Shown in pieces: positions 1 to 29,573 of a stretch of DNA of 64,000 nucleotides. Origin of the DNA: an uncultured Chloroflexia bacterium (lineage in GTDB: Bacteria > Chloroflexota > Anaerolineae > CG2-30-64-16). Made by a program: the position numbers and the translations under genes. The stretch's first letter is position 1; every line of letters begins with the position of its first letter. The DNA lies in the NCBI GenBank assembly GCA_963810095.1, contig CAWEMM010000012.1, positions 690,496-754,495 on the forward strand. The letters run 5' to 3'. The notes under the pieces are model-generated. The model did no database searches. It had not been told where the DNA came from and saw only the letters and a program-made list of their open reading frames with translations.

Positions 1-1772
1 GGCCAGCGCGCCCCCTTCCAGCGGCTGGAACAGCCGCTCGGGCAGCGTGTCGTCCTGCCGGGTGCGCCCCTCCCGGGCATTGAACACCCGGGCGAGGTTA
101 TTGGCGCGCTCGCCGATCCGCATCAGCTCGTCCAGCGTGACATCCCAGCCCGGTGGCCGCATGCACCGTCTCCACCACGTCGGGAATCGCGATGAACGAG
201 CGCGGCGCGGGCCCGAAGTAGCACAGCCCGCTCGTCTTGCCCCAGTTGTTCCAGTGCTCCATCAGCGTGTAGTACTCGACCTTGCGCCGGCTGAGGTCGC
301 GCGGGGCCAGCGGCTCGGTCACGCCCAGCGGCTCGACGCCCTTGAACTGGAGGGAGTCCGGGTTGGCCAGCACGGGGTCGTGGAATGCCGTCAGGTGCTC
401 GGCGCCGGTCTCGGAGGTGGCATATGACAAGCCCACGCCCACCTTGCCGCGCGGCTCGTGCATGGCCAGCTCCTGCCCCTTCACCTGCATGGCAAAGAGC
501 GGTGCGTCGCCCCCGATCGCTTCCGCGGCCCGCTTGCTCCCTTCGGCCAGCAGGTTGCCGATGCCCTCCCGGCGCCCGATCAGCTCCACGCAGCGGACCA
601 TGGCCGGGGCGTTTCCGAAGCGGAGGTCGAGGCCGCCCGTGTCCTCCAGCCCAATCAGCCCGTGCTCGAAGCATTCCATGGCGAATGCGACGGTGGCGCT
701 GCACGAAATCGCGTCCATCGTGAAGCGGTTGCACAGCTCGTTGGCCTTCGCCACGGCCTGCAGGTCGTCGATGCCGCAGTTGGAGCCGAAGCCGGCGACC
801 GCCTCGTACTCGGGCCCGCCGTAGTTGTCGCTCACCTGGTACGCGGTCGCCGGCTGCGCCGCCGACCTTCACTTCGCGCTTGCAGCGCACCGCGCACGCG
901 TAGCAGCTGCGCCGGGCGCTCAGGATCTCCTTCTCGTAGGCTTCCCAGCGCAGGTTGTCGACGCCCTCGAACCCGCCGCTGCGGAAGTTGCGGGTGGGCA
1001 GGATGCCCCCGGCGTTCAGCCCCCCGGTGAGCCCCGGCGTGCCCTTCACCTGCAGGTCCCAGCTCAGCGGGTTCTCTTTGACCTCTTTGGCAAGCTTCTT
1101 GCCGAAGTTCGCGATCCACGGCCCATCTTCCGCCATGTCGACGTAGCGCGTGCTGCCGCGCACGGCGACGGCCTTCAGGTTCTTCGACCCCATGACCGCG
1201 CCCATGCCCGTGCGCCCGTTGAAATGGCGCAGGTCGTTCGTGATCGCTGCGAACCGCACGCCCTTTTCGCCGGCCTCGCCGATCTGCAGCACGCGGACCA
1301 GCTTATCGCCCAGCTCGCCGCGGATGGTCGCCTGGGCTTCCTCCGGCTCGCGGCCCCACAGGTGCTCGGCCGGGCGCAGCTCGACCTGGTCGTCCTTGAT
1401 CCACAGGTACACCGGTCGCTCGGCCCGCCCCGTGATGACCACGGCCTCCCAGCCGGCCATCTTGAGCTCGGGGCCCCAGAACCCCCCGGCCTCCGACTCG
1501 CCGTAGCCGTCCGTCAGCGGCGACTTCCCGATGGCCGTGAAGCGGGTGGCGGTGGAAAAAGGCGCGGCGGTCAGCAGTCCGTTTGCCAGGATCAGGATGT
1601 TCTCGGGGCCCAGCGGGTCGACATGTGCGGGCAGTTCTGATAGGAGCAGGTAGGCGCCGAGCGCTTTGCCGCCCGGGTACATGCGATAAGTCTTTTCGTC
1701 GAGGGTCTGCGTAGCGATTGAGCCGCTCGCCAGGTCGACGCGTAGGATTTTTCCGGTGTAGCCAAATGGCAT
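1..1772 (-). CDS. aor: Aldehyde:ferredoxin oxidoreductase (W/Mo AOR family); frameshifted, runs off window start
   Basis: ORFs 123..1772 and 98..835: GYTGKILRVDL, KSPLTDGYGESEAGG, GRTGMGAVMGSKNLKAV, CYACAVRC, GPEYE, VKGQELAMHEPRGK. Confidence 0.9.
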
Positions 1773-1786
1773 GATTGAGCCTCGGT

Positions 1787-2585
1787 TTATGAATGGTGCG
1801 GGTCGCCGGCGACGGGCTGCCCGAACTGGCGCGCGAGGAACCGGCGGGTGGCTTCGAAAAGCTCCCCGCGTTCGCAGTCGAGCGCCACGCAGTGCGTGGA
1901 CCGGTCGAGCCAGAGCAGTTCCTTATCGGTCGAGCCGACCCGGTCGTAAATCTCCTGCGGCGCGGCCGGGTCGACCGTGCGGTCCAGCCGGCCGTGGACG
2001 ATGAGGATCGGCTGGCGGATCTCGGGCAGCAGCGGGCGCACGGCAGCCTGCAGGCGCAGCAGTTCCCGGATGCCCCGTGCCGGCCGCACGTCGTATCCTT
2101 GCCAAAGCGCATCGGACTCGGCGGGCGCGCCGGGCTTCGGATGCACCATCACGTCGAAGGGCGCGAGCGCATACGCGGCCCGTTCCTGGAATGAGCTGAT
2201 GGCGAGCTTGAGCGCGGGCGCGTACGAGAGCACCGCCGCAATCTCCGGGTGGGTCGCCGCCAGGTGCAGCGTCAATGCCGCGCCCGTCGACTCGCCGCCA
2301 ACCGCAACCCGGCCGCAGCGGGTCTTCAGTGCCACGTACGACGGCTGTGACGGCCCGCAGCCAATCGCGCCAGCCGTAGTGCCCGAGGTCTTCCGGCTCC
2401 GTGCCGTGCCCGGGCAGCAGGGGCGCAGAGACGGTGTAGCCCGCCGCGTGCAGGTTTTCCGCCAGCGGCCGCATCTCCGCAGTCGTCGCGGTCAGCCCGT
2501 GCACGAGCAGCACGCCGTCCGGCCCCCCGTCCAGGCAGAAGGCGTCGCCGGGCAGGTGGTCGTTGACAAGAAGTCTCTTCGACAT
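1787..2585 (-). CDS. Alpha/beta-hydrolase carboxylesterase / monoacylglycerol lipase-like; frameshifted
   Basis: GVLLVHGLTAT, PLLPGHGT, GESTG nucleophile motif, HGRLDRTV, STH. Confidence 0.85.
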
Positions 2586-2597
2586 GCAGGATCCTTA

Positions 2598-2670
2598 CCA
2601 CTAAGACACAAAGAACCGAAGACGCACGAAGTGATTGTGCAACTTCGTGTCTTGGTGTCTTTGTGGTTAG
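2598..2670. repeat. Intergenic imperfect palindrome (ACCAC..AAGACAC...GTGTCTTTGTGGT type)
   Basis: accactaagacacaaag...cacgaag / cttcgtg...gtgtctttgtggt; related half-copies near 9722-9742 and 38395-38445. Confidence 0.6.
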
Positions 2671-2679
2671 TCGGACGAC

Positions 2680-3597
2680 TTATGGCAGCCACTTCTTTGC
2701 CAGCCGGCATACCATCGTGTAGGCCGGGTCGTAGACGTTGCCCAGGTCGTAGTCCACGCACTGGCCCAGGAGGATGCTCGCCTCCTGCATGGTGAGGCCG
2801 TAGTCGGCGGTCAGCCAGCGGAGCATTTCGGTCGTGGCGTGCTGCAGGGCCTGGTCGAGCGGCCGGGCGTTGCCAACCGTGAAGATGTGCTCCGCATTCT
2901 CGCCCCTGGGCCACCGAACCGGCGCGTGCGCCTCCTGGCCCTTGATCACCCGGAGGCGGAACTCGACCTCGAACGAAATCTCGATCCCCGTTCCCACCAC
3001 CTCGCCGTCGCCCTGCACCGCGTGCCCGTCGCCGATGAAGAAAAGCGCGCCCGGCACCGCAACGGGGAAGTATGCGGTCACGCCCGCACAGAAGCCCCGG
3101 TAGTCCATGTTGCCGCCGTGCGGTCCGGCCGTGGACGTGGAGATGGCCTGGCCGCCGGCGGGCGCGACGCCGAAGCAGCCCACCATCGGCGCAAGCGGCA
3201 GGGCCAGCCGGCCGAGCTTGGGGAACGGCTCCTGCGGCGTGGCACAGCCGGCCGCTGCGTCGACGTCCCAGATCAGCGTTTCGGCCTCGGGCAGCGAGGC
3301 GACAAAGCTCGGATCGACCACGCCGGGCGCGACGACGTCACGGGTGAAGCCGGTCGGCCGGTTGGGCGCCAGGCGGATGAGATCGACGGCCAGGGTATCG
3401 CCGGGCTCGGCCGGCTCGACATAAAAGGGACCCGTCTGCGCGTTCGGGCGGCCGCCAGCAAGCTGGCCGTGGTGGTCCCAGCCGTGCGCGTCGATGGTCG
3501 TGGTCACGACCGTATCGCCGTCGGCGACCGTGAGAACGGGCGGATGCGAGCCGAGCGTGTTGTAATAGCGGGTTGGTGCGAAGTGATGAGTCGTCAT
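2680..3597 (-). CDS. Acetamidase/formamidase family protein
   Basis: TGPFYVEPAEPGDTLAV, HGGNMD, GDGHAVQGDGEVVGTGIE. Confidence 0.9.
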   Translation of the reverse strand: MTTHHFAPTRYYNTLGSHPPVLTVADGDTVVTTTIDAHGWDHHGQLAGGRPNAQTGPFYVEPAEPGDTLAVDLIRLAPNRPTGFTRDVVAPGVVDPSFVASLPEAETLIWDVDAAAGCATPQEPFPKLGRLALPLAPMVGCFGVAPAGGQAISTSTAGPHGGNMDYRGFCAGVTAYFPVAVPGALFFIGDGHAVQGDGEVVGTGIEISFEVEFRLRVIKGQEAHAPVRWPRGENAEHIFTVGNARPLDQALQHATTEMLRWLTADYGLTMQEASILLGQCVDYDLGNVYDPAYTMVCRLAKKWLP

Positions 3598-3601
3598 AAC
3601 A

Positions 3602-4869
3602 CTAGCGTAACACCGGGATTGTGGCGTTGGCAAATGGCATGACGCCAATGCGCGCGCCGGATGGCAGGCGGGCCAGCGCCTCGTCCACGGCCTGCTGGAG
3701 CGAAGGGGCGGGGTTCAGCAGCAGGCGCTCGGCCAGGCTGCGGTCCATGTCTGACACGAACGTAAGGCGGACGCGGGCCGCGTCGCGTGCGATCTGCCAC
3801 GCCTTGTGCGGGCCGATCCGGTAACCCTCCGCCGCATAGCGGTCGAGCACCTGCTCGTGCGTCGTGAAGCCGCCGTCGAGCATCCAGCGCTCGTAGGCTG
3901 CGCTGCCCGTGCCTTCCCCGCAGGCCGCGGCCAGGATCACTGCGCCGCTCAGAGCGGGAACCAGCCGGGTCACCAGGGTGGCGTGCGCGAGGGCCTTTTG
4001 CGCCTGGTACAGGTTGATGTCCTTCGGATGGCCGCCGGGCGACACGATGACCAGGTCGAACGGGCGGCTGACTTCCACCGCGTAGATGGCGCGCAGCAGG
4101 GGGATGCCCGCCTGCATCACGTCGACCGGGCGCCCGGCCAGGACGTGCGCGATCTGCTTGTGGTCATTCAGGATCGCGTTGAGCGCGTAGTCCACCCCGA
4201 TCAGCCGCCCGATCTCTTCGACATCCTGCCGGCAGGGGTTGTCCGCGTAGGAGTTGATCTCGGCGCCGGCCGCGGTCATCATGGCATGGTTCGTGTTGAT
4301 GGTGGCCTTCGCCGTCAGGCCCACCGCCGCGCTCTTGACCCCGCCCGAGAAGCCCATGAACTGGTGCGGCTCGATGTTCCCCACGACCACCCGCAGGTCC
4401 GCCTCCCACCAGCGCCGGTTGACGCTGACGGGCGTGCCGCGGGCCGTCTCGCCGAGGTAGATCAGCTCGCCGTCCGCATTGCAGTCGTGGCTGTACACGG
4501 GGTAGCGGGCGAGGATCTCGGCCGGCAGGATGGCCGGGAATTCCTCGGGCGGCATGGGGGCGTGGGTGCCGGTCGCCACCAGCAGCGTGATGTTCTCGGG
4601 GAGGAACCCGAGCCCTTCGAGCCGGGCGAGCAAGGGCGGCAGAAGGTAGCGGTGGGGGACGGGCCGGGTCTTGTCGTTAACCGCGACGACAGCCCTCCGC
4701 CCTCGGTTCGTGGGCAGGGGCGCGGCGTCCAGGGCCGCCTCGACTGCCGCCAACGGATCGGGCGAGGGCGCGGCCTCGCGGGGCGCGAGCAACTCCACCC
4801 GGCGTCCAGCGCGGCGGGCAGGTCGAACTCGACAAATCCTTTCCCGTAGGGAAGCTGGTAGCGGGTCAA
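3602..4869 (-). CDS. larA: LarA-family nickel-pincer 2-hydroxy-acid racemase; frameshift near 5' end
   Basis: LPYGKG, VNDKTRPVP, ATGTH, IEPHQFMGFSGGVKS, GGHPKDINLYQAQKAL. Confidence 0.85.
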
Positions 4870-4876
4870 CGGCGCC

Positions 4877-5990
4877 TCATGCAAACAGCCGGATCAGCAG
4901 CAGGCTAAACAGCGCCAGGCAGCCGCCCACGGCAAAGCCGAGCGCGAGCGGCTTGAGCCCGGTGCGCCGGATGCTCGCGGCGTTGGTGCTCAGCCCGATG
5001 GCCGAGAGGGCGAGCAGGATGCAGAGCTTCGTCACCTCGTCCAGCAGCTTCAGCACGTTGGCGGCGGCTACCAGGCTGCCCGGGTCGTTCACGTTGACCG
5101 GTGTGAAGCCGAGCGCGTTGCCGAGCGACCGGACCAGGCTCATGCCGACGAAGCCGAGCACGAACCAAGGCACGATCTTGCCGATCGACAGCTTGACCGA
5201 CGCATCCCGCTTCTGCTGCGCCCGGGCGTACACCAGCCCGATGCCGAGGATCAGCGGGGCCATGAGCGTGTTGCGCACGAGCTTGACCACCGTCGCAACG
5301 TCGCGTGCCGCGTCGCTGAACGCCGCGCCCGCGGCCACCACCTGCGACGTGTCGAGGATCGCAGTGCCGGCCCACAGCCCGAAGATCCGGTCGCTCATGC
5401 CCACCAGGTAGCCGAACGTGGGGTAGAGCAGCACGGCCAGCGTGCCGAAGAAGGTGATGGTGGCGACCGCATAACTCACATCCTCGTCCTCGGCCTCGAT
5501 GACCGGGGCCGTCGCAATGATGGCGGAGTTGCCGCAGATGGCGGTGCCGACGCCGATCAGCGCGGCCAAGCCGGGGGCGGATACGGAGGGCGCGCCCCAG
5601 CAGGTAGGCGAGCGACAGGGCAAAAGCCACGCACGCGAGCACCAGCAGCAGCGCAGACCCGCCGATGTTGATCACGTCCTGGAAGCTGAGCCGCACGCCC
5701 AGCAGGATAATGCCAAAGCGCAGGATGCGGGTCAGAGCGAACTTGATGCCCGGCTCGAAGCGGGCGGAAAACCCGATCGCGTTGCGGACGAAGAACCCGA
5801 GCAGCACCGCGATGAAGACTTCGCTCACCGCCCGAGCGATCTCGGGCGAGGGGATCAGCCCGTGCAGGTAGCGCGCGATGAGCGCCACGGCCAGCACCAG
5901 GAACAGGCCCGGCAGGGCAGGGCGCAGCTCCGCGCCGATCTTGCGGAGCTCGGCAACAAGTGGATTGACGTGCGTTGTAGGGGCGATCAT
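4877..5990 (-). CDS. YeiH/UPF0324 (SuyZ-like) putative sulfite/sulfate exporter; frameshifted
   Basis: LRFGIILLG, GTAICGNSAIIA, GLWAGTAI.DTSQVVAA, KLVRNTL, VPWFVLGF; many TM segments. Confidence 0.85.
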
Positions 5991-6081
5991 GGCAGCTTCC
6001 CGACCTTCGGGGTTTCGACCGCGAGCAACCTGACCGGGTCAGGCGCTCGGTGAAACCCCGAAGGTCTCGGATTGGAGCGGG

Positions 6082-7230
6082 TTACGCGCTCTCGTAGAGC
6101 TTCGTCAGGACGAACTCGTCGTGGCGCAGGGCCTCGGCGGCGGTGAAGCGGCCGTTGATGGTGTGTTCCAGCACCTCCATCGCCTTGTCGGCGCCCTCGT
6201 CCAGGTTGATCTCGATGCGGAGGAGCCCGGTCAGGTCCACGTCGATGTGCTCGGACATCGTCGCGACGGTCAGCGGGTTCGCACACAGCTTGATGACGGG
6301 GATGATCGGGTTGCCGATGATGTTGCCCTGCCCCGTGGGGAAGTAATGGACGACCGACCCGGCTGCCGCGCACAGGGTGACCATTTCGGCCGCGGCCGAC
6401 GACGAATCCATGAAGTGCAGGCCCGGGCCCTGGGGCTCCACGGCCTTGTCGAGCACGCCCACGACGGTGCAGCGCCCCATCTTCTGGATGTTGCCCATGG
6501 CCTTCTCTTCGATGGTGGTCAGGCCGCCGCGGATGTTGCCTTCGGTCGGCTGCGAGCCCAGCAGGTCGACGCCCTTGCTCTTCACGAGCGCCTGGTAGTC
6601 GTTGAAGAACTGCATGAACCCGTCGGCCACTTCCTGCGTCGCGCACTGGTTGGCGATGATGTCCTCGCCGCCCGTGACCTCGGTCGTCTCGCCGAAGATG
6701 AGGGTTGCCCCAGCGTCCGCCAGCCGCTCGAACACCCGGCCGACCGTGGGGTTCGCCGCCAGGCCCGACGTGGTGTCCGACTCGCCGCACTTGGTGCTCA
6801 TGCACAGCTGGTCGACGGTGAACGGCTCGCGCTGCAGCTCGGTGGCGTACTGCACGAACTCCATGGCCTTGCGCGCCGCCATCTCGATGGTCTTCAGGTC
6901 GCCGTAGCGCTCGATGCTGAACCCGGCGACCGGCTTGCCCGTCTCGGCGATCGCATCGACCACCCGCTGCGTCCACTTCGGCTCGATGCCGATGACGATG
7001 GCCGCGGCCACGTTCGGGTTGCGCCCGGTGCCCGCCAGCGTGCGGAAGGTCAGCTCGAGGTCCTCGCCGAACTGCAGCCGGCCGTATGGGTGCGGCAGGG
7101 CCATCGTGCCCTTGATCAGGCTGGCAACGCCGTTGGCGGCGGCATTGGAGATGTCGTCGATCGGCAGGATGATGACGTGGTTGCGGACGCCGAAGCGGCC
7201 GTCCGGGCGCTTGTAGCCCAGCAGCTTCAT
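6082..7230 (-). CDS. suyB: (R)-sulfolactate sulfo-lyase beta subunit (UxaA family)
   Basis: GVRNHVIILPIDDISNAA, LPHPYGRLQFGEDL, KCGESDTTSGL, QPTEGNIRGGLTTIEEKA, FMDSSSAAAE, FPTGQGN match the SuyB subfamily as I recall it. Confidence 0.85.
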   Translation of the reverse strand: MKLLGYKRPDGRFGVRNHVIILPIDDISNAAANGVASLIKGTMALPHPYGRLQFGEDLELTFRTLAGTGRNPNVAAAIVIGIEPKWTQRVVDAIAETGKPVAGFSIERYGDLKTIEMAARKAMEFVQYATELQREPFTVDQLCMSTKCGESDTTSGLAANPTVGRVFERLADAGATLIFGETTEVTGGEDIIANQCATQEVADGFMQFFNDYQALVKSKGVDLLGSQPTEGNIRGGLTTIEEKAMGNIQKMGRCTVVGVLDKAVEPQGPGLHFMDSSSAAAEMVTLCAAAGSVVHYFPTGQGNIIGNPIIPVIKLCANPLTVATMSEHIDVDLTGLLRIEINLDEGADKAMEVLEHTINGRFTAAEALRHDEFVLTKLYESA

Positions 7231-7591
7231 TTCCTCCGGCTTCTTGCCGCCCAGGGCCAGCCGCTCGGTGTGCTTCTGGACGATTTCCGGCGCGGGCGCC
7301 TCTTCCAGGCTCCACGCGCATCGTCTTCAGGTTTTGCGTGTGGACGTGGCCGCCGCAGGGGATGGCCGCAGTCGTCTGGCCGATCGTGCGCCCGTACTTG
7401 AGCAGCTTGTGCCCCGCCGGCATGTCGCGCATCGCAACCTTGTGGCCCAAGGGCACGTCGTTCACGACCTTGAGGCTGCCGTGCTCCTGCCCCTCCAGCG
7501 TGACGACGCCCACTTCCTCGCCCGCGTGCAGGTCGCGCACCGCCACGCCGACATCGTCGATGAGTTCGTGAATCAGGATTCCGTGTGCCAT
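7231..7591 (-). CDS. suyA: Sulfolactate sulfo-lyase alpha (SAF) domain, probably fused to SuyB via a linker
   Basis: DDVGVAVRDL, DVPLGHKVAMRD, KYGRTIG, HVHTQNLKTMR(W). Confidence 0.8.
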
Positions 7592-7611
7592 GATGAGTGC
7601 CTTTCGTAAAC

Positions 7612-7718
7612 GGGATTGGAATGGGACTCAGTTAACTGATCAAACTGATCGACCTGATCTTTCTTGAATATCATGAAGATCAGTCCGATCCGTTCGATCT
7701 GTGTCCCATTCTGCGTTC
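7612..7718. repeat. Intergenic CTGATC/GATCAG palindromic repeat, copy 1
   Basis: ggactcag..aactgatc..ctgatc..ctgatc ... gatcagtccgatc..atctg; similar to 11642-11759. Confidence 0.65.
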
Positions 7719-7719
7719 T

Positions 7720-8936
7720 CTACAAGTCGATCCCGTTTTCGCGGAGCAGCTCGTCGATGAGCACGGGCTGCCCGGTCTTGACCGATTTTTCGGCCGCCGC
7801 GCCGACGACGATGGACCAGAAGCCCTCGGCGGCTGTGGCCGCTGTCCTTGGCGCACCGTCGATGTTGTCCACAAAGCTGACGTGCTCGAAGTAGGTCGCG
7901 CCGTGGTGGCCGCTCGCCTGGATGAAGCCGGGTAGCACGGCGTGCCGATGCGGGTGGGCTTGCGGTCGCCGCACTTGATCTCGATGGTCGTGTCGGGCTG
8001 GCCCGCCGGCAGGAAGTCCTCGTTCTCCGACACCTTCAGCCGGCCGTCGTCGCCGCAGAGCACCATCTCCTCGTAGAACATGGGCGAGAACATGCAGAGG
8101 TTGAAGGTGGCCCGCACGCCGTTGGCGTAGTTGACGATGACGAACGGCGTTGTCGATGATGTCCGACTTTTCGCCCTCGTACTCGAAGTCGAGGAAGTTG
8201 ACCGCCGCGCTGCCGCTCGCATACACGCTGACCGGCCGGGCGCCGGCGAACAGGTTCATCAGGTCGAAGTAATGGCAGCACTTCTCGACCAGCGTGCCGC
8301 CCGAGTACTTCGAGAACTTGTTCCACTGCTTCACCTTGTCGAGGAAGGGGAAGCGGTGCTCGAGGATGCTGATCGTCTTGATGTCGCCGATGGTCTTGCG
8401 CTCCAGCGCCTCGTGGATGGCCTCCACGTAGATGGGCTTGAAGCGGTACTGCAGCCCGATCTGGAAGACGGCGGGGTGCCGCTGCGCCATCTGCATGATG
8501 GCATAGGCGTCGCAGACCGTCGTCGCCATCGGCTTCTCGAGCAGGATGTGCTTGCCCGACGCGGCGGCCACCCGCACCACGTCGAGATGCGTGAAGTTCG
8601 GCGTGCAGATGATCAGGCCGTCGACCGCCGGGTCGTTGCACGCCGCTTCGAGCGAGTCGTACACGACCAGCTTTTCCCGCCCGGGCGGAACTGGGCGTGC
8701 ATCCCCTGGGCGCCGGCAATGCTCAGCGGGTTCGGGTCGTACACGCCGTGGATGACCGCGCGGCCCTCCATGCCCGTCACCCGGATGTGCTCCTGCCCGT
8801 TGACGCCCGTTCCGATCACGTTGAAGCGGTAGCGCTCCTCTGCCGGTGCGAAGAGGTAGCGGTCTTCGGCCGGGATGTACGCGAAGACGGGGCTCCGCGC
8901 AAAGACCTGGTTGCGGAATTCTTTACCGATTGGCAT
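7720..8936 (-). CDS. sqgA: Gfo/Idh/MocA-fold protein, probable NAD+-dependent sulfoquinovosidase (GH188); frameshifted
   Basis: VIGTGVNGQEH, TPNFTH, LEKPM, EHRFPFLDKV..WNKF, GGTLVEKCCHYFDL, HHGATYFEH; lies in an SQ cluster. Confidence 0.7.
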
Positions 8937-8951
8937 AGCGTTATCCTCGAC

Positions 8952-9616
8952 TTATTCGTACGGCGTCTTGTCCCAGAAGCTGCAGAACCGCTTCAGCCCC
9001 TCGTCCGTCCACGGGTGCTGGACCATGCCCTTGTACACCGCGAGGCCCGCAGGTCACGATGTCCGCCCCGGCCACGGCCGAGTCCACGATCTGCCGGCCG
9101 TTGCGCACCGCACTGACGATGATCTCGGTCGGGAACTCGTAGTTGTCGCGCATCATCACGATTTCCTGGATGAAGCGCACGGTTTCTTCGCCGGTCTCTT
9201 CCTTCCAGCCGATGAAGGGCGAGACGAACGTCGCGCCGAGCCGCATGGCCTGCAGCGCCTGGCTGCCCGAGAAGACGAGGGTCAGGTTGACGCGGATGTT
9301 CTTCGGCCCGCAGGCCGCGCAGCGCCCGGAACCCGGGCTCGGTGGCGGGCAGCTTGATGACGAAGTTGGGGCTGAGCGCGGCCAGCTTCTTGCCCTCGGC
9401 CACCATCTCGCGCCAGTCGTCGTAGTGCGGGTTGACCTCGACCGACACCGGCAGGTCTGTCCCCTTGAAGATCTCCGCGATCTCCTTGATCACGACCATG
9501 AACGGCTTGCCCGAAGCCTGCACGTGCCGGGGGTTCGTCGTCACGCCGTCGATCCCCACCATCTCCAGCGCGTACGTGATCTCGTCCGTGATCGCGCTGT
9601 CCAGGAAGAACTTCAT
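8952..9616 (-). CDS. sqvA: 6-deoxy-6-sulfofructose transaldolase (SqvA/SftT type); frameshifted
   Basis: MKFFLDSA, DGVTTNPRH..SGKPF, SVEVNPH, FVSPFIGWKE, AVRNGRQIVD: TTNPRH and GWKE as recalled for SF transaldolases. Confidence 0.8.
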
Positions 9617-9753
9617 CCTTGCCTCCGAATGTGTGTCGTCGCCCGCGGGACCAATGTCGAGGCTACCACAAGGTGCCCGATGACATGGCTTCACAAAGCT
9701 CTGCAACTATCGCCTGGCTTCCGTTTGTCTGTGTCTTTGTGTTAAAGTCATGT

Positions 9754-10702
9754 CTACCTGCCGCCGAAGCCCGTCGTTGCGACGCCCTGCACGAAGTAGC
9801 GCTGGGCGAAGACGAACACGATCAGGATCGGGATGAGCACCGCCGTCGACGCCGCGAACAGCAGCTCCCAGTTCCCCGTCATCTGCACGTCGTTGAGCGC
9901 GCGCAAGCCGAGCGCCAGCGTCCAGTTTTGCCGGCCGTTGATGTAGATCAGCGGCTGCAGGAAGTCGTTGTAGCTCTGCAGGAACGCGAACACCGCCACC
10001 GTCGCGATGACCGGCTTGGACAGCGGCAGGATGATGTTGAAGAGGATGCGGACGCGGCTTGCGCCGTCGACCAGCGCGGCTTCCTCCAGCTCCATGGGGA
10101 TGGTCTTGAAGAACTGCCGCATCAGGAACACGTAGAGCGGCGCCAGCGCCAGCCAGAACGGCACGGTCAGCGGCAGGTAGTTGCGCGGCAGGTCGAACAG
10201 CGTGCCCGGCAGGTCGAGCACGTTGCCCGGCTTCGTCCAGCCAAGCGTCCTGAACTCGATGAACATCGGGATCATCGTGATGATCTCGGGCAGCATCATC
10301 GTGCCGAGCAGCATGCCGAAGAAGAAGTCGCGGCCGGGCCAGCGCAGCCGGGCGAACGAGTAGGCCACCAGCGACGACGACAGCACCACGCCCAGCACGG
10401 TCAGGAGGGAGATCTTGAAGGTGTTGACCGCAAACGTGGCGAAGGGCAGCAGCTGCCATCGCGTCGGCGTAGTTGCGCCACTGGGGCACGGCCGGGATCC
10501 ACACGATCGGGTTGGCGAAGATCTCGGGCTGGCTCTTCAGCGACGAAGAGACCATCCACAGCGTGGGGCCCAGGAACGTGAGCAGGATCAGCGTCATCAG
10601 GACCTGCAGGCCGATGATGCCCAGCCGGTCCATCGTCTTGCGCCGCGATTTGGCGGCCGCGTATTTTTCGGTCTCGACCGTTGGCGTGGCAGGGATGTCC
10701 AT
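9754..10702 (-). CDS. CUT1 sugar ABC permease (MalG-like); frameshifted
   Basis: AYSFARLRWPGR, LEEAALVDGAS, PLSKPVIAT, FAQRYFVQG. Confidence 0.9.
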
Positions 10703-10711
10703 GGGGCGCTC

Positions 10712-11623
10712 CTACGACTCGTAATACACCCAGCGGCTCGACACGTAGAACTGCGACGATGGTCAGGCCGATGACGATGATGAAGAGCTCCCACGCCAGC
10801 GCGGAAGCGTAGCCCATGTTGAAGAACTGGAAACCGTTCCGGTAGATGTTGAGCACGACGAACAGCGTCGAGTTTTCCGGCCCGCCGTCGGTCATGATCA
10901 GCGCGGGGACGAACGTCTGGAACGAGTTGATGATCGCGATGATCATGTTGTAAAAGATCAGTGGCGTCATCAGCGGGACGGTGATCTTGAGGATCGAGGT
11001 GAACTTGCTCGCGCCGTCGATCTGCGCGGCTTCCTGCAGCTGGACCGGGATGTTGCCGAGGCCGGCGATAAAGATCACCATCTGGCGGCCGATCATCCAG
11101 AACGACATGAAAGATGAAGGCGGGCTTGGCCAGCTCGGGCTTGAGCAGCCACGGCTGTGCCGGGATGCCCACCCAGCCGAGGATGGTGTTCAGGATGCCG
11201 AAATCGGGGTGCAGCACCCGCTGCCACACGACGGCCGTCGCGACGACAGGGATGATGATGGGCAGGTAAAAGCCCGCCCGGTACATCGCCCGGAACTTGA
11301 GCGGCTGGGTCAGCGCCAGTGCCAGCGAGAAGGAGATGACAAGCTGGAACGGCACGGCAAAGAGGGTGTAAATCGCGCTGTTCACCAGCGCCTTGCGCGC
11401 CAGCTCGTCGGTGAACACCCGCGTGATATTCGCCAGCCCGGCGAACAGCCGGCGGCGAGAGCAGGTCCCATTTCTGAAACATCAGGTAAATGGAGTAGAG
11501 CATGGGAAATGCGACGAAGGCGAAAAAGCCGATCAAGAACGGCGCAGCAAACAGGTAGCCTTGCAGCCATTCGCGGCGCTGAAATGACGACACGCGGCGC
11601 CTGGGTTGCGTTACAGCGGCCAT
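10712..11623 (-). CDS. CUT1 sugar ABC permease (MalF-like); frameshifted
   Basis: YLFAAPFLIGF, LQEAAQIDGAS, TDGGPENST, MGYASALAW. Confidence 0.9.
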
Positions 11624-11641
11624 GCCGTACCTCCCGAAGCA

Positions 11642-11759
11642 GAATTGGACTCAGATTGAACTGATCTGACTGATTTGCCTGATCCTTCACCCTGGGCTGG
11701 CAGGGTAATCACGAACAAGATCAGGTGATCAGTCCGATCAGTCCAATCTGCGTTCTATT
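11642..11759. repeat. Intergenic CTGATC/GATCAG palindromic repeat, copy 2
   Basis: ggactcagattgaactgatctgactgat...gatcagtccgatcagtccaatctgcgttct. Confidence 0.65.
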
Positions 11760-11762
11760 GCA

Positions 11763-13179
11763 CTATGCGCCGAGCGCGGCGTTCAGCTTCTCGTCGACCT
11801 GCGGGAAGACCTCGGCCGGCTTGGCGCTGCCGTTGTTGATCTTGTCCCATGCGGTCGGCTTCACGACCTCGGACCACATCTTCGAGCGCGGCACGTTGGC
11901 GCTGACCACGTCGATCTGGCCTTCCTTGAACGCATCGAGGAACGCCTGGCCGTTCTCGATCTGGTACAGCTCCTTGGTGCGCGGCACCCACCAGCTTTGC
12001 GCCAGGTCGAGGTTCGACGGGATGCGGCCGGTGATGGTGGAGTACTGCTTGTTGCCTGCTTCGCTCACCAGGAACGCGGCGAACGCCCAGGCGGCCTCGG
12101 CCAGGTCGGTCTTCGGTGACCGCGACGCCTTCGCCCCAGCCGCGATGCGGCCGGCCCGAAACGTTGGGGGTCTTGGGCATGAGCACCACGTCGAAGGGCA
12201 CTTCCTTCTTCTGCTCGCGCAGCTTCGGGCTGTTGAGCTGGGGCAGGAACCACGGCCCTTCGTACTTCATGGCGCACTTGCCGGTGTTGATCGTGTTCGC
12301 GCCGGACGTGTCGGCCGGGCTCGGCGCGACCTTCCAGGTGTGGGGCATGTCGTAGGAGGTCGTGGTGATGCGGTCCACGATCTCGGGCTGGTTGAACATG
12401 GCCTTCTTCGGGTCGATGATCGTGTCGAACTCGCGCTTGCCCGTGCCGACGATCCAGCCGATGTCGCGGTACCAGTTGCCGTTGACCTGGTAGCCGAACA
12501 GGCCCTTGCCCGCGTCGGTCAGCTTCTTGGCCGTCTCGACGAACTCGTCGAACGTCCAGTCGGTCTTCGGGTAGGCCACGCCGGCGTCGTCGAAGATCTT
12601 CTTGGCGTAGAACATGATCATCGTCGCGGCCTGCAGCGGGATGAGGAAGGTCTTGCCGTTGCGCTTCGTGCTCTGCTCGACGCTGGTGTAGCCCGAGGGG
12701 TAGACGTTGGTCACCTTGTCGCGGGTGATCCAGTCGTCGACCGGCTGGAGCAGGCCCTTGTCCGCATAGGCTTGCCACTCCCAGCCCTGGAAGGAGGCCA
12801 GGTTGGGCGGCGTGCCGCCGGCGAACATGGTCTGCAGCTTGGTGTAGTAGTTGGCGTTAGGGTCGGCAACCGGCGTGATGTTCACCACGTTCCCGGTCAG
12901 CTTGGTGTACTCGGGCCCCAGCACTTCCCAGGCCGGGACCGTCGGTCGTGTCGCCCCAGGCGAGGAACTCGATCGGGGCGAGCGCTGCCCTTCGCCGCAG
13001 GTGCGGCAGTCGGGGCGGCTGCGGCCGGCGCGGTGGTCGCCGCGGGCGCAGCCGTGGGGGCGCTGCGGCCGGTGCGTGGCCTGCTGGCCGCCGCATGCGG
13101 AGAGCAATGCGGCCGCCGCCAGGCCCCCGCCGCCCAGCTTCAGGAACTCGCGGCGGGACAACTTGGTCTGCTTGGACAT
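11763..13179 (-). CDS. ABC sugar-binding lipoprotein with Tat signal, probable SQ/SQ-glycerol binding; frameshifted
   Basis: SRREFLK twin-arginine motif, LSAC lipobox, KLQTMFAGG, FDDAGVAYP..DWTFDEF. Confidence 0.85.
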
Positions 13180-13253
13180 GTGCCTTTCCCTCCCTGGGTG
13201 GTGTTGAGATCGCGTCGTGGGGCCCGTGCGCAGCACGCCGCCTCATGACAGGA

Positions 13254-13304
13254 GTTGACTTACGACAGGCGTTGACCTACGACAGCTGTTGACTTACGAC
13301 AGGC
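13254..13304. repeat. Three tandem 17-bp repeats
   Basis: gttgacttacgacaggc / gttgacctacgacagct / gttgacttacgacaggc. Confidence 0.9.
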
Positions 13305-14647
13305 GCAGCACGGGCAGGTCGAGCAGCCGCGCCAGCGCCAGCAGGGCGTCCAGGTGGTCGCCGTAGGTCAGGGAGATGTGGTGGTCCAGCCCTTCGGTCA
13401 TGATGGTGTCGAAGCACCTCTTGGGCCGGGCGGTCGAACCGGATGCACGCCGGACGTGCCCGTGTAGCTCATCGGCGCGTGCTGCATTTCGCCCGCCGCC
13501 ACGACCAGCCGGTACTCGCCCGTGGCCTGGCTCAGGCGGGCGAGGGTGACGCGGCCCGGCTTCAGCGGGAACTCCATCAGGAGCGGCTTCTTGCGGTTCG
13601 AGTGGACCGTCGTGCGGGGCCGCAAGTCGGGATCGGCCATCGAGAGCGGCGCGAGCCCGCAGTGCCACAGCACCGCCTCGTCCCGCTCCAGGTCCCAGCC
13701 GACCATGTCGGTCCCAAAGGCGGGCTCGCCGCTCAAACCCTGGAGAATCAGCCCCGTGACCGTGCCGTTCACGTCGGCCTCGCACGAGCACGGCGTCATC
13801 TCGTCGGTCAGCAGCGACATCGCGCCGCACGCGGCGCCGCCCAGCTCGGTGAAGAACTCGGGCCAGCAGCGCACCGCCAGGCCCCGAAAAGGCGTTTTCG
13901 TCGGCCAGCCGCCCCAGCGTGACGTACGCGCCGAGCGTGTTGCGCAGCGGCTCCTGCTCCAGCTCGTCCAGGCCGTCCACCCGCTCGCTGCAGGTTCGCC
14001 AGCACCGGGTCTACCGCGCTGACCGCCGCGCTCCGGGCGCCGTCGAACACTTCGGCCAGCCCGCGCTGCACCACCTGCACGCCCAGCCGGGCCGCCAGCG
14101 CATCGCCGTCATACGTGCACGGCTCGAAGCCGTCCGGGTTGAGCCCGAACCGCCCGATCCGGGCGCTCTTGAGGCGTGCGCCGCACCCGGCCCGCTTGTG
14201 CCAGCGTGAGCAGCTTCTGCATCGCCTGCGCGGTCTTCCGGCTCGGCGTAGACGTACTCATAGCTGAACCCGGCCCGGCGCAGCGCGTGCGCCGCCAGGT
14301 TGATGCCGCAGAACGAGTTCAGCCGCAGCCGGCCCCCGGTGCGCTCTTCGGGCAGCGCCCACAGCAGCAGTGGCGCGCCGGGCACGGTGCGGGCCAGGTC
14401 GACGACCATGGTGCTGTCGGCGAACGAGGCCTGGAACGCGAGCAGCAGGTCGACCGGCTCGGACAGCAGCTCGGCCGGCCGCCGCCCGCACGCCGTCCAG
14501 GTCCATCACGAGGTCGGCCGGACCGTGCACCACGCAGCCGGCCTCGTCGAGCCGGGCGCGCATGCGGGCCATCATTTCGGCCGCCAGGGGGACGTCGAAG
14601 GTGGGACGGGCAATCGGAATGAAGCCGATGTGCAGCGTTGGTTTCAC
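13294..14647 (-). CDS. L-fucose-isomerase-fold protein, probable sulfoquinovose isomerase (SqvD/SftI type); multiple frameshifts
   Basis: [51 protein letters not shown]; SQ-cluster context. Confidence 0.7.
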
Positions 14648-15995
14648 GGTTGGGTTCCTTGTCGGTAGAAGAATGCGTCGAGGGCGAGCGCGGCCGCACC
14701 GATGACGCCCACCTTGCGGCCAAACGCCGTGGTGGAGAGGGTCACCCGCTCGCCCAGGCCGGCGAACGAGCGCCGGCGCATGGTCTCTTCGATGCGGGGC
14801 AGCATCAGGTCGGCCCCGGCGGCGAACAGGCCGCCCAGGATGATCATGTCGGGGTTCACCAGGTTGACGAGGTTCGCCAGCGTCGTGCCCAGGTGGAAGG
14901 CCCGCTCGTCGAGCAGGGCGAGCGCGTCGCGGTCGCCCGCCGCGCCGCATCGAACACCGCATCGATGGCGCCACCGGGGCTGAGTGCGGCGTCGGCGGCA
15001 GCGCCTGGGCCAGGATCGAGCCGGGCGAGCGGCGCTGCGAGCACGGTGGCCTGCCGCACGATCTCCCCTTCGGACACCAACGTTTCGAGGCAGCCGGTGT
15101 TACCGCAGCGGCACGGCGCCCCGCCGGCAGGGATGACGGTCGTGTGCCCGATTTCGCCCGCGCCGTACTGCGTTCCCCGGTAGAACTCGCCGCCGATGAC
15201 GAAGCCCGCGCCCACGCCGACCCGGCTGTAGACGAACGCCAGCATGTTCACGTCGCGGCCCGCGCCGAACATGGACTCGGCCAGGGCCATCGCGCGCACG
15301 TTGTTGTCGACCATGACCGGGCGGCCGGTGATCTCGGTCAGGATGTCGCCGACCGGGCACGTTGCGCCAGCCGAGGCTCGGGCGCGAGCACGTTGACGCC
15401 GGTGTGCGGGTCGGTGAGGCCGGACGCACCGACGCCGATGCCGACCAGGCCGGTCGCGGCAGCCGCCCGACTCGTCGAGCGCGGCGTCGGCGATGTCTGC
15501 GGCCATGCGCAGCAGTTGCTCGGGCGACGACGCGCCGTCCTCGGGCTGGTGCAGCGATGCGGTAGGCCTGCAGCTCGCCAAACAGGTCGGTCACGCCCAC
15601 GTGGACCGTGTCGACGCCGATGTGGATGCCCACGGCGCAGCGTGCGTCGGGGATCAGGCGGACCAGGGTGGGGGGCGGCCGGCGCCCTTGCGCTCGACGT
15701 TCGAGCGCTCGACGGCCGTGCCTTCGACGTTCGAGCGCTCGAAGGGGAGCGCTCGCCTTCAGCAGGCTCCTTGCCCGCTTCCTCGACGATGCCCTGTTCC
15801 AGCAGTTGCGTGACGAGGTTGGTGATGGTCGTGGACGACAAGGCCGGTGAGGCGGGCCATGTCGACCCGGGAGATGGGGCCGCAGCGCAGCAGCGTCGAA
15901 AGGATCGCGTGCAGGTTATGTTCTTTGACGTCAGAAATCGACCGGCCCCGGGGGAGGACGGTGCTATTAAGGGCGAGGGGATGGTGGAGCTTCAT
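14644..15995 (-). CDS. ROK family transcriptional regulator; frameshifted
   Basis: HTH GPISRVDMARLTGL; DNNVRAMALAE, GEIGHTTV, CRCGNTGCLE, NPDMIILGG. Confidence 0.9.
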
Positions 15996-16020
15996 TGGTC
16001 GCGCCTGATCACCCGGGAGG

Positions 16021-20588: not shown

Positions 20589-22127
<1,539 letters not shown>

Positions 22128-22128
<1 letters not shown>

Positions 22129-22727
22129 TAGTCCTTATTAAACGCGTTGGGCAATGCATCCGGATGCAGTTGGTCGGCGCTCCAGCGCGCTGGGTTACCC
22201 TGGATGTACTCCTCAATGCGGCGCAGCTCGCTCTCGTTGCGAATCACGTGCTCCCAGTAGTTGCGCTGCCAGAACCTCGCGCCCGGCATTTCGCGCAGCA
22301 GATTGACGGCCTTGGTCGTTTGGTATTTGTAGTATGCCACGATTTGACCCAACGTGGGCTGTAGGGGCGGGGTCTCCCCGCCCGGAGGGCCTGCGAGCGC
22401 GCATGGGAGCCTGGGCGGGGAGACCCCGCCCCTACAGGTGTTGGCGCAGGATGGGTTGTCGAGGATCACGATGTTCGCGTGGGTGTGATTGGGCATGACG
22501 ACGAATGTCGTGACGGCGACGTTCGGGAAACGGGCTGGGATCTGTGCCCAGTATTGAGACGCAATTTCGCCGCAGGCGTTGGGGATCATGACCCCGCAGT
22601 CGATGTTACCCAATGTGCATTCACGTTGGTGTGTACAGACGGTAACGAAATAGACGCCCGGCTGCGCATAATCGAACTGCGGTATGCGGATTGACCGGCG
22701 GTGCTGGGTGTCAGGGTCGTATGTCAT
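22128..22727 (-). CDS. rayT: REP-associated tyrosine transposase (RAYT, Y1 HUH)
   Basis: HRRSIR..FDY, YFVTVCT, VVMPNHTH, FWQRNYWEHVIRN, YIQGNP. Confidence 0.9.
22359..22437. repeat. REPIN: inverted GTAG-type REP pair inside the RAYT gene
   Basis: ctgtaggggcggggtctccccgccc (22359-22383) and its exact reverse complement (22413-22437). Confidence 0.9.
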
Positions 22728-22776
22728 CGGCAGTGGGGGCGCGGCGGCGTGAGCCGGTGGGTTGGGTAGGCATAGA

Positions 22777-23115
22777 TCAGTCTTCCGGCGCGTACTGAGC
22801 GCGGTCTTCGTGCAGCGCCGTCGCCTGATTCTCTTCCTGAAGCGGCACGAGGCGAACTTCGAGACGCGCCCCCAGGGCCTCCGCAACCTTGCGCAAGAAG
22901 GAGAGCGTCGGCGTCGAAGCGCCGCTCTCGAGGCGCGCGATGCCCGGCTGCTTCGTGCCCACCAGCTCGGCAAGCTGTTCTTGCGTTAGCCCCCGAAGGA
23001 TGCGCAGACGAGCAACCTGGTACGCCGGCTCCAGCTCGGCCAGTGCGGTCACGAATTGCGGGTCGCGCATCTGCTCGGCTTCCCATTCTTGCAGCGGCAG
23101 CAGCCTTCTCGACAT
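22777..23115 (-). CDS. HigA-like XRE HTH antitoxin
   Basis: RILRGLTQEQLAELVGTKQPGIARLESG..PTLSFLRKVAEALG. Confidence 0.85.
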   Translation of the reverse strand: MSRRLLPLQEWEAEQMRDPQFVTALAELEPAYQVARLRILRGLTQEQLAELVGTKQPGIARLESGASTPTLSFLRKVAEALGARLEVRLVPLQEENQATALHEDRAQYAPED

Positions 23116-23463
23116 CAGTCCTCCGTCAACTCCGCCATGCGTTTCTCGGCAGTGGCGATCTCCTCCGCCGGCGCCTTCCGTCCTTGCTTACGGTAGCCGT
23201 GCAACAACACGAAGGTCCGATCGACATGCGCGAAGTAGAAGATGCCGTTCGGACCCGGTCGCAGCTCCCAGAGCTTGGGATGCCCGCTGACCGGCCGTGC
23301 ATGGGGCATGCCGAGCAGAGTGCCAAACTCGCACAGGAGGCGGAACGCATTCTCGGCCTCCACCGCGTTCATGCGGCGGCAGCTTGCTCAGAAACTCGAC
23401 CAACGGGCTCCTGGCCCGCCGGTCGGTGTAGAACGCGATCCGCCATCGACGGTCGTCGGTCAA
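23115..23463 (-). CDS. RelE/HigB (Gp49-like) toxin; frameshifted
   Basis: WRIAFY..SPLVEFL, LGMPHARP, LWELR, FVLLHGYRKQ. Confidence 0.85.
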
Positions 23464-23475
23464 GGTGATGCACCT

Positions 23476-23504
23476 AATATAACGTCTTTGTTATACTAAG
23501 TCAA
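23476..23504 (-). promoter_or_regulatory. Sigma70 promoter of the TA operon with palindromic operator
   Basis: TTGACT-17 bp-TATATT on minus strand; inverted repeat tataac-N6-gttata at 23478-23495. Confidence 0.75.
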
Positions 23505-23608
23505 GACGCGCCACCAGGCGTTGACCACCGATTTGGAGTTCGTCGCGCAGGACGTCGGATTGCTTCCAGACCCTTTGTCCATGGCCGTAGGCTGGATGCG
23601 TCCTGCCC

Positions 23609-24284
23609 TTACCCGCGTTGCGCTGGCTGGTTTCTGCCGCTTCGAAGCTTATTCCTTTGCTCTATTAGGATTTGGCGGTTTAGCAACTCTAGTAGCTTTG
23701 TGGCACCAGCGATGTCGTTCTTCATTTCGTCGCAGTCTTGCCTTAGCGCGTCGACTTTGCCCTGCGCGGTACGCACTGCGGGCATAGGCTCGCGACGCAG
23801 GGCGAGCCATTTGTTGAGGTGATACGCGAGCCCAGCCGCACAAGCAATGGCGAGGGCTAACCACAGCACGGCATCTGTGGAGCCACCCTGTGCTACAGCA
23901 AGCAGAAACATAACCACCAAGCCAGCGCCAAACCCCAGAACAAACTTCGAAAGCCGGTCCTCTTCCAACTTCTGCTCAGCAAGCGCCTTTGCGGCTTCGG
24001 CCTCGGCGAGCGGGATTTCGCTCTCACGTCTGACGAGTTCGCCTTGCGTTCGCACGATAAAGTCTCTCCATTCTTCTTCCTCCTCCTTAACTTCTCTGCT
24101 CGTCCTGACCGAGAGGAGGCGCTCTATCGCAGCTTGCAGTGAGAGCAGGACCCGTCGCCCGTCAGCGTCCTCTTCGAACTTCTGCCAAATGTGGCAGTAC
24201 GAACACTCATAGTAGACTCGTTCGGCTTTGGGCTCAATCGGCGCGCCGCACTTGACGCACTGGTAAACAATCGTTGCGCTCATT
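23609..24284 (-). CDS. Hypothetical Zn-ribbon / coiled-coil / 2-TM membrane protein
   Basis: CVKC..CSYC, acidic coiled coil, two hydrophobic helices, C-terminal coiled coil; lower GC. Confidence 0.7.
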
Positions 24285-24414
24285 GTCCCTCTGATGCTGA
24301 TGCGATAAGCCGGCGCAAGAAACGGGCTTTGACGCACTTCCCGGCTCCAATGGTCAGCCCGCCAGTTTTGCCAAAGTCGCCTTCAACGAATGTCGATCTC
24401 AACGTGAAGGATAG

Positions 24415-28618: not shown

Positions 28619-28647
28619 GCTGCTGCCGCGCCTCGTTGGGTGGTGAG

Positions 28648-28685
28648 GGAAGAAAAAGCCGCCTCGGTTTGCCCCGGGGCGGCTG
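28648..28685 (-). terminator. Intrinsic terminator-like hairpin about 30 nt upstream of the hsdR start
   Basis: Minus strand agccgccccgg-ggcaaa-ccgaggcggct followed by ttttcttcc. Confidence 0.65.
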
Positions 28686-29529: not shown

Positions 29530-29573
29530 AACGAAATAGCAGCGAAACTCGAAGGAAATAGCAGTGGAATTAT

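Follow-up and report, generated by a model that had tools for sequence, protein, structure and literature searches.

A LarAH5-family protein encoded beside suyAB in a Chloroflexota sulfoquinovose gene cluster as a candidate nickel-pincer sulfolactate racemase

Introduction

The conversion of (S)- into (R)-sulfolactate is reportedly carried out by a two-dehydrogenase sulfolactate 'racemase', SlcC plus ComC, which is said to go back to Denger and Cook in 2010. Both enzymes depend on NAD(P), and sulfopyruvate is set free between them. According to the available part of an mBio paper from 2025, the stereochemical course leads from (S)-sulfolactaldehyde to (S)-sulfolactate, on to (R)-sulfolactate and only then to the sulfo-lyase SuyAB. 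In this study, a gene cluster is described in which one homolog of LarA, a racemase whose cofactor is the nickel-pincer nucleotide (NPN), is encoded next to SuyAB. The cluster is located in a stretch of 64,000 nucleotides (hereafter the window; contig CAWEMM010000012.1, positions 690,496 to 754,495, of assembly GCA_963810095.1) of an uncultured Chloroflexia bacterium. A preliminary description of the window had read this LarA homolog as a one-step sulfolactate racemase which takes the place of SlcC and ComC, and had presupposed the (S)-to-(R) inversion that is stated in the mBio paper.

The LarAH5 family, to which the protein belongs, has been studied with Mar1 of Desulfitobacterium hafniense (Dhaf_4417). 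In the available text of PMC7583248, the Km of Mar1 for malate is given as 55 mM and its kcat/Km as 0.39 per s per mM, the latter approximately 470-fold lower than the 185 per s per mM of Mar2 (LarAH6, Thermoanaerobacterium thermosaccharolyticum, PDB 6D6Z), which has a sub-millimolar malate Km and is encoded in a malic-enzyme context. Desguin et al. (2020, PMC7583248) considered that malate is perhaps not the native substrate of Mar1 and proposed tartrate or 2-hydroxysuccinamate instead. As far as that text goes, Mar1 (encoded on plasmid pGIR313 in its strain table) was assayed on malate and few other acids, never on sulfolactate; the string 'sulfo' is absent from PMC7583248 and from a follow-up of 2024. 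Table S1 of the same paper lists COG2721, 'altronate dehydratase', at 100% for the group-5 contexts (19 entries against 15 for LarAH). D. hafniense DCB-2 uses sulfolactate as terminal electron acceptor, as stated in the available part of a review from 2026 (PMC12890257).

Clusters of the 'extended' sulfofructose transaldolase (sulfo-TAL) type in Chloroflexi and Thermotogae unite sulfoquinovose isomerase, sulfofructose transaldolase and SuyAB in one locus, as the window does (Liu et al. 2020, as reviewed in 2022 in PMC9594981). In the available text of that review, no enzyme for the S-to-R inversion is named and LarA is not mentioned. A literature search, with subscription papers and figures outside its reach, yielded no paper naming a LarA-type sulfolactate racemase; where a racemase appears in the accessible parts of papers on SuyAB or sulfoquinovose, only SlcC/ComC are mentioned.

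The LarA homolog and its family

The LarA gene was found where the preliminary description had placed it, just past the exporter gene and downstream of suyAB. It opens with a TTG codon (4867–4869) with GAGG five bases upstream, 7 bases past the exporter stop codon (4877–4879), and ends with a stop codon at 3602–3604. The frame opened by TTG encodes the N-terminus usual for the family (..LPYGKG..). Two Pfam domains, Lar_N (PF09861, 2.4e-49) and LarA_C (PF21113, 1.5e-11), span the full length of the product. The NCBIfam model of LarAH5 (NF052595) is matched with 471.3 bits (cut-off 462, E 2.8e-141), even without the out-of-frame N-terminus described below, whereas the protein stays under the cut-offs for LarAH6 (NF052593, 370 vs 500 bits) and for lactate racemase (245 vs 460). 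The top match among solved structures is Mar2 (E 3.6e-69, residues 4–396).

In an alignment with 40 homologs, the counterparts of D72, R75, H108, H174, K184, H200 and Y-Q-x-Q-K298 are retained (roles and numbering from the available text of PMC7583248), which are the same catalytic and NPN-binding residues as in Mar2. The catalytic motifs read NDKTRPVP, ATGTH, EPH and YQAQK, and those for NPN binding TRP (R75), GGVK (K184, the tether) and NH (H200, a nickel ligand). The group-5 signature described in PMC7583248 consists of glutamine (or histidine) followed by phenylalanine past the second catalytic histidine, plus a GHK motif. EPHQF and GPHK are present in the window protein. The HQF loop, the GHK motif and the assignment to NF052595 are thus shared with Mar1, while the loop of Mar2 reads H-Y-K. 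As judged from these matches, the gene product belongs to LarAH5 and is an NPN-dependent racemase of 2-hydroxyacids. Physiologically, it probably acts on 3-sulfolactate, which would make it a sulfolactate racemase. This assignment draws on the genomic context, which supports the reading as nickel-pincer sulfolactate racemase in at least nine phyla.

Gene context of SuyAB in other genomes

With an alignment of SuyB relatives, at least 599 matches were obtained in species-representative genomes, and the best 80 loci (63–83% identity, flanks of up to 10 kb) were examined; in the following, loci are given as L, genomes as G and contigs as C numbers. SuyA was present in 79 of the 80 loci, LarA in 20, a dehydrogenase of the Ldh_2 (ComC) family in 29 and both in a single one, while 32 lacked the two, a large part of these being on truncated contigs. 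Where at least 8 kb were available on both sides (40 loci), LarA was found in 11, Ldh_2 in 22, neither in 7 and both in none. LarA and SuyAB share their strand in 20 of 20 loci, and in 19 of these LarA is either directly adjacent to SuyAB or separated from it by the exporter alone. All 20 proteins match NF052595 best and 17 exceed its cut-off. Of those that score lower, two are truncated where their contigs end; the remaining one (L064:8230-9603) is devoid of the Asp/Arg motif, of the first catalytic histidine and, in the YQAQK helix, of YQ, and this SuyAB-adjacent copy has probably decayed.

The LarA-type loci belong to Chloroflexota, Verrucomicrobiota, Acidobacteriota, Actinomycetota, Spirochaetota, Planctomycetota, Thermodesulfobacteriota and Myxococcota, and two layouts recur. 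The first (ROK, SftI-like isomerase, solute-binding protein, permeases, GH31, transaldolase, SuyAB, in part YeiH, LarA, and an aldehyde:ferredoxin oxidoreductase (AOR) or aldehyde dehydrogenase) is that of the Chloroflexota and is also found in Verrucomicrobiota, Acidobacteriota, Actinomycetota, Spirochaetota and Planctomycetota. The second, of Desulfobacterota and Myxococcota, comprises a sigma-54 activator, a DhpA/YihU-like dehydrogenase, SuyAB, LarA, a TRAP or TTT transporter and AOR. An AOR gene was detected in 10 of the 20 LarA-type loci (L015, L019, L023, L024, L028, L047, L065, L066, L081 and L091) and in none of the 60 others; a NAD-type aldehyde dehydrogenase is encoded in four further LarA-type loci and in one of the Ldh_2 type. 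The carrier of L081, Desulfovibrio cuneatus DSM 11391, is in culture.

The Ldh_2-type layouts are SuyAB-TctC-TctA-Ldh_2 in Halomonadaceae and SuyAB-Ldh_2-TctC in Cupriavidus. They resemble the canonical suyAB-comC cluster. SuyB of the window is 65–68% identical to SuyB of these Halomonadaceae and Cupriavidus loci, whose layout contains ComC and TctC. Among the loci with neither partner, an HpsN-like gene is present in L049 and L057 and would give (R)-sulfolactate directly, and L093 holds an Ldh_2 gene missed by the threshold. HpsN-like, TauE and ComC neighbours also occur elsewhere within the same SuyB orthogroup, and these neighbourhoods, with the Ldh_2-type layouts, support the assignment of all 80 loci to one such orthogroup. 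For a possible orthology with the biochemically characterised SuyB of Paracoccus pantotrophus and Chromohalobacter salexigens, the identities and neighbours given here and the automatic name given below are indirect evidence.

The ComC type is found largely in Pseudomonadota and the LarA type largely in anaerobe-rich phyla. In a FastTree phylogeny of SuyB, the LarA-type loci fall into two clades, near-sisters have swapped their partner (L029 with LarA, L030 with Ldh_2), and the LarA/ComC label requires at least 5 changes. The raw exclusion test of LarA against Ldh_2 (Fisher p 1.4e-5) ignores relatedness and therefore overstates the case.

LarA-based surveys and phylogeny

In the phylum of the window, 301 genomes were surveyed (including the unpublished G038 and G227, which have no match above cut-off), and 18 of them encode a protein over the LarAH5 cut-off. 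The LarA gene abuts SuyB in G000 and G175 and a transaldolase gene in G002 and G015, the latter two on short contigs. In one genus (g72), LarAH5 is encoded directly after the phosphosulfolactate synthase ComA (TIGR03849, 337 bits vs 280) in 7 of 9 genomes (L099, L100, L101, L103, L105, L107 and L109). In the metagenome loci L152, L164 and L193, ComA is located directly upstream of a LarA from a different branch, with the order ComA-LarA-Ldh_2 in L164. The pairing of ComA with LarA suggests a biosynthetic or sulfite-fixing route in which sulfolactate has to be inverted. In a class of Bacillota, above-cut-off LarAH5 proteins were found in 2 of 162 genomes, both encoded beside Ldh_2-SuyB-TctC-TctA and transcribed divergently.

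The 80 metagenome contigs with the closest relatives of the window's LarA (52–65% identity) carry SuyAB in 42 cases, ComA in 3 and other sulfo-pathway genes in 10, while nothing of this kind was found on 25, mostly short contigs. On the 31 contigs with at least 3 kb upstream, the corresponding numbers are 20, 3 and 1. Together with the 20 of 80 SuyB loci, this agrees with the preliminary description, in which this LarA clade was expected to co-occur with suyAB.

A quick IQ-TREE phylogeny of 41 LarA sequences places the window's LarA in a clade with 100% support (clade A), which holds 13 SuyAB-linked members including that of the window, 2 linked to transaldolase and 4 others. A second group joins 7 SuyAB-linked Desulfobacterota sequences (100%) with 9 of the ComA-linked genus (99%). 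The Desulfobacterota-type sequences score highest on NF052595 and form a deep branch distinct from clade A. The four 'other' members of clade A have HHF instead of HQF in the loop, and paralogs outside LarAH5 have HYF. With somewhat less assurance than for the window's protein, we lean towards the view that the whole LarAH5 family, named 'nickel-dependent malate racemase' at NCBI, consists of 3-sulfolactate racemases.

Cofactor genes and LarA paralogs

The presence of larB, larC and larE, on which the racemase reading depended in the preliminary description, was confirmed: the three genes form one operon (larE-larB-larC, C2:113532-116260), and each product exceeds its curated cut-off (LarE 319 bits vs 150, LarB 277 vs 175, LarC 475 vs 22). 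Of five LarA-type genomes tested, three encode LarB, LarC and LarE, and LarC was found in none of five ComC-type genomes. Four further LarA paralogs are encoded in the genome of the window. One of them, frameshifted as well, adjoins a second AOR-like gene outside the window (C12:583077-585708), so that AOR and LarA are paired twice in this genome.

Gene cluster of the window

Read 5' to 3' on the minus strand, the cluster encodes a ROK regulator, an SftI-like protein, a solute-binding protein, two permeases, a transaldolase/FSA-family protein, a Gfo/Idh/MocA-type oxidoreductase, SuyA and SuyB, a YeiH/PSE exporter, LarA, a formamidase-family protein, an alpha/beta hydrolase and AOR (Table 1). 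By its gene content, it is an 'extended' sulfo-TAL cluster for sulfoquinovose. No gene for an Ldh_2 (ComC family), 3-hydroxyisobutyrate-dehydrogenase-type or YihU/DhpA-type dehydrogenase was found in the cluster, which is in line with the preliminary statement that a SlcC/ComC-like pair is lacking there; the two Ldh_2 genes of the genome are located at C12:571 kb, approximately 120 kb away, and on contig C7.

Table 1. Features of the sulfoquinovose cluster in the window, by position
Feature	Position	Strand	Evidence
Aldehyde:ferredoxin oxidoreductase, in three frames, runs off the left end of the window	4..1766	minus	Pfam AFOR_N and AFOR_C, tblastn
Alpha/beta hydrolase (Hydrolase_4)	1787..2491	minus	Pfam
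Acetamidase/formamidase-family gene, directly after LarA	2680..3600	minus	PF03069
LarA homolog, LarAH5 family, candidate sulfolactate racemase	3602..4869	minus	Pfam, NF052595, match to Mar2 (6D6Z), motifs
LarA frame break at a GGG run	4798..4800	minus	Sequence and frames
YeiH/PSE-family putative sulfite/sulfate exporter	4877..5990	minus	PF03601 in both pieces, TIGR00698, tblastn to L015 and L023
SuyB, sulfolactate sulfo-lyase part	6082..7242	minus	Pfam GD_AH_second and GD_AH_C
SuyA (SAF-domain) part	7316..7591	minus	tblastn to SuyA of L015, L016, L023 and L027
Gfo/Idh/MocA-type oxidoreductase, frameshifted	7720..8922	minus	Pfam; 56% identity to the L027 gene between transaldolase and SuyA
Transaldolase/FSA-family, sulfofructose transaldolase-like, in three frames	8955..9625	minus	tblastn to TAL_FSA of L015, L023 and L027
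Two ABC transporter permeases, frameshifted	9757..11626	minus	Pfam BPD_transp_1, tblastn
ABC solute-binding protein	11766..13203	minus	Pfam SBP_bac_1; 63–77% identity to the L015 homolog
SftI-like sulfoquinovose isomerase, C-terminal part (N-terminal part towards 14640)	13297..13889	minus	tblastn to L015 and L023
ROK-family regulator, frameshifted	14647..15341	minus	Pfam ROK, tblastn

SuyB shows at least 79% identity to 119 other clusters among those listed, 59 of which bear the automatic JGI name '(2R)-sulfolactate sulfo-lyase subunit beta'. As a galactarate dehydratase, it was rejected (124 bits vs a cut-off of 731). Going by its COG name, COG2721 is presumably a UxaA-type dehydratase like this SuyB, in which case the neighbour listed for group 5, to which Mar1 belongs, would be of the same kind as here. 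In the closest relatives (95–98% identical), SuyA and SuyB are fused into one protein of about 502 amino acids (497–504) and continuous over the junction; the apparent split in the window stems from one extra base at 7316–7318. The transaldolase is 58–76% identical to its homologs, which carry Pfam TAL_FSA, over two long pieces and 53–56% over a short C-terminal piece. For the SftI-like homolog of L015, the sole NCBIfam match is NF048012 (sulfoquinovose isomerase SftI), with 296 bits under a cut-off of 700. The Gfo/Idh/MocA-type gene occupies the slot between transaldolase and SuyA that GH31 takes in other clusters, as it also does in L027, L020, L125–L128, L130 and L145. It possibly encodes, in place of GH31, a NAD-dependent sulfoquinovosidase of the GH188 kind described in the available text of PMC10755693.

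The formamidase-family gene was found in none of the 80 SuyB loci, and among the 80 metagenome loci it follows LarA in 3; it is outside the conserved module. Hydrolase_4 adjoins LarA in 6 of the 80 metagenome loci and also in L095, L102 and L108, and is a recurrent minor neighbour. One or both of these genes lie downstream of the LarA clade in L145, L131, L133, L118, L157, L159, L167, L176, L095, L102 and L108, with L145 sharing the LarA-FmdA-hydrolase order of the window. Elsewhere in the window (20767-28780, 22780-23387, 29562-31184 and 60080-61227), mobile and defence genes unrelated to LarA are located, namely type I restriction-modification genes (HsdM, HsdR pieces), a Gp49/HTH toxin-antitoxin-like pair, an IstB-like ATPase and a DDE transposase.

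Proposed pathway

What we infer here is the substrate of LarA, in which direction the flux runs, and what AOR and the exporter do. Sulfoquinovose would be imported by the ABC transporter, isomerised by the SftI-like enzyme and cleaved by the transaldolase to give (S)-sulfolactaldehyde, which AOR would oxidise to (S)-sulfolactate. The AOR is thus a candidate sulfolactaldehyde:ferredoxin oxidoreductase, an activity of which we know of no description. LarA would move the C2 hydride of (S)-sulfolactate onto the nickel-pincer cofactor, with one histidine accepting the hydroxyl proton, and the hydride would go back to the opposite face of enzyme-bound sulfopyruvate to yield (R)-sulfolactate (proton-coupled hydride transfer). 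SuyAB would then form pyruvate and sulfite, and the YeiH-type protein would export the sulfite. No dsrA was detected in the genome, which is 88.5% complete, and export rather than respiration of sulfite is therefore assumed. In this way, a single cofactor-bearing LarA would replace the SlcC and ComC pair. The net reaction, via sulfopyruvate, would be that of the two dehydrogenases, which hold the equivalent slot beside SuyAB in other genomes and have no homology to LarA; the difference would be that a single enzyme, to which the nickel cofactor is tethered, keeps the intermediate bound. Beside ComA, the same inversion would run from the (R) side. 3-Sulfolactate is the sulfonate analogue of malate, with a sulfonate where malate has its distal carboxylate, and this would explain the weak malate activity of Mar1.

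Several observations weigh against this assignment. Malate is the only substrate on which activity of the family has been measured (available text of PMC7583248), and the R-specificity of this SuyAB clade is presumed by analogy, carried over from proteobacterial enzymes. Sulfonate context was lacking at 7 of the 18 hits in the phylum (G234, G076, G148, G086, G235 and two g72 genomes) and at 7 of the 31 informative metagenome loci. LarA was not found within approximately 10 kb in the close SuyAB relatives L017 and L027, both with full flanks. Neither larB, larC nor larE was found in G302 and G303, two of the five LarA-type genomes tested, which are metagenome-assembled genomes and may be incomplete. 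Moreover, the SuyB tree provides 5 independent contrasts (sign test p ~0.5), too few for significance. The exclusion of slcC/comC that the preliminary description had proposed to measure came out in favour of its reading, with both genes in one of the 80 SuyB loci and in none of the 40 with long flanks. It is not absolute, since LarA and Ldh_2 co-occur in L066, L115 and L116 and Ldh_2 lies near LarA in 5 of the 80 metagenome loci. Finally, the LarA gene as deposited is frameshifted, which is treated below.

Alternative substrates and the frame break

It is unlikely that LarA, instead of sulfolactate, uses a different 2-hydroxy acid of the pathway or its surroundings, such as lactate, glycerate or a sulfosugar acid. 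Some promiscuity occurs among LarA homologs, for which as many as 16 substrates are reported in the available text of PMC11770544, about a quarter to a third of the LarAH5 genes have no SuyAB nearby, and the alpha/beta hydrolase recurs beside this clade. However, 3-sulfolactate is the sole metabolite common to the contexts of sulfo-TAL with SuyAB, of the 2,3-dihydroxypropanesulfonate (DHPS) type with SuyAB, and of ComA, and no sugar acid is an intermediate of sulfo-TAL as far as the available text of PMC9594981 goes. The four members of clade A which have lost the SuyAB context, moreover, have HHF in place of HQF in the specificity loop.

A second alternative, quite improbable in our view, concerns this genome only: the frameshift would be real, the gene a pseudogene and the cluster in decay, whatever the family does elsewhere. 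The 1268 bases from 3602 to 4869 are not divisible by 3 and contain no uninterrupted frame. The N-terminal 24 codons are in one frame and the other 398 (GTG at 4798 to the stop at 3602) in another. The majority of the cluster genes are likewise broken, and the genome (16 contigs) is just 88.5% complete. Alignments with homologs reveal approximately 20 frame changes in positions 1-16000 of the window, affecting AOR, the exporter (two frames meeting near 5568-5575), the transaldolase, both permeases, the solute-binding protein, ROK and the Gfo-type gene; further examples are located at 7316-7318, ~850, ~9050 and ~9315. Yet similarity persists on both sides of these breaks without in-frame stops, which is the pattern of indel errors, the LarA break falls at a homopolymer, and the catalytic residues of LarA are all intact.

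Seven public sequencing runs were consulted, each containing at most 0.12 of the sampled words; four of them yielded only short contigs of low depth. The extra base at 7316-7318 is absent from contigs of three runs (X1, X3 and X5), one of them 98% identical, in agreement with the continuous junction in the closest protein relatives. No contig from these runs clearly bridges 4798-4800, and a 151-base record that ceases to align exactly at 4800 is a hint only. The break in LarA is most likely an assembly indel and not decay, because some 20 similar breaks occur in 16 kb and the base at 7316-7318 is missing in three runs. Gene calls and completeness of this genome would be badly affected by such an indel-rich assembly.

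Very unlikely, finally, is a malate (or tartrate) racemase or epimerase as the databases have it, with a UxaA-type neighbour for a non-sulfonated acid and an incidental sulfonate link: NF052595 bears the name 'malate racemase, LarAH5 family', malate is indeed racemised by Mar1 and a formamidase-family gene comes after LarA in the window as well as in three metagenome loci, but the Km of Mar1 is high, the amidase is missing from all 80 SuyB loci, the SuyB relatives in Halomonadaceae and Cupriavidus lie in surroundings like those of the canonical suyAB-comC cluster, and the conserved partners are SftI-like proteins, sulfofructose-type transaldolase, GH31, YeiH, DhpA/YihU-like dehydrogenases and ComA, not malic enzyme or genes of the TCA (tricarboxylic acid) cycle.

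Implications

If LarAH5 proteins are sulfolactate racemases, the family name 'malate racemase', which is propagated by NCBI, would be corrected, and a new reaction, on an organosulfonate, would be added to the short list of those catalysed with the nickel-pincer cofactor. The route by which sulfoquinovose, DHPS and (S)-sulfolactate arrive at a presumably R-specific SuyAB would become clear for phyla lacking the ComC system (Chloroflexota, Desulfobacterota, Verrucomicrobiota and others). The stereochemical gap between the S series of sulfoglycolysis or DHPS oxidation and SuyAB would be closed by a one-enzyme answer of anaerobes to the SlcC/ComC shuttle, and in some lineages LarAH5 would also have a biosynthetic role beside ComA. 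With a tungsten/molybdenum AOR supplying (S)-sulfolactate, the operon would be complete for a NAD-sparing mineralisation of sulfoquinovose, and the flux from sulfonates to sulfite and H2S could be read better from metagenomes.

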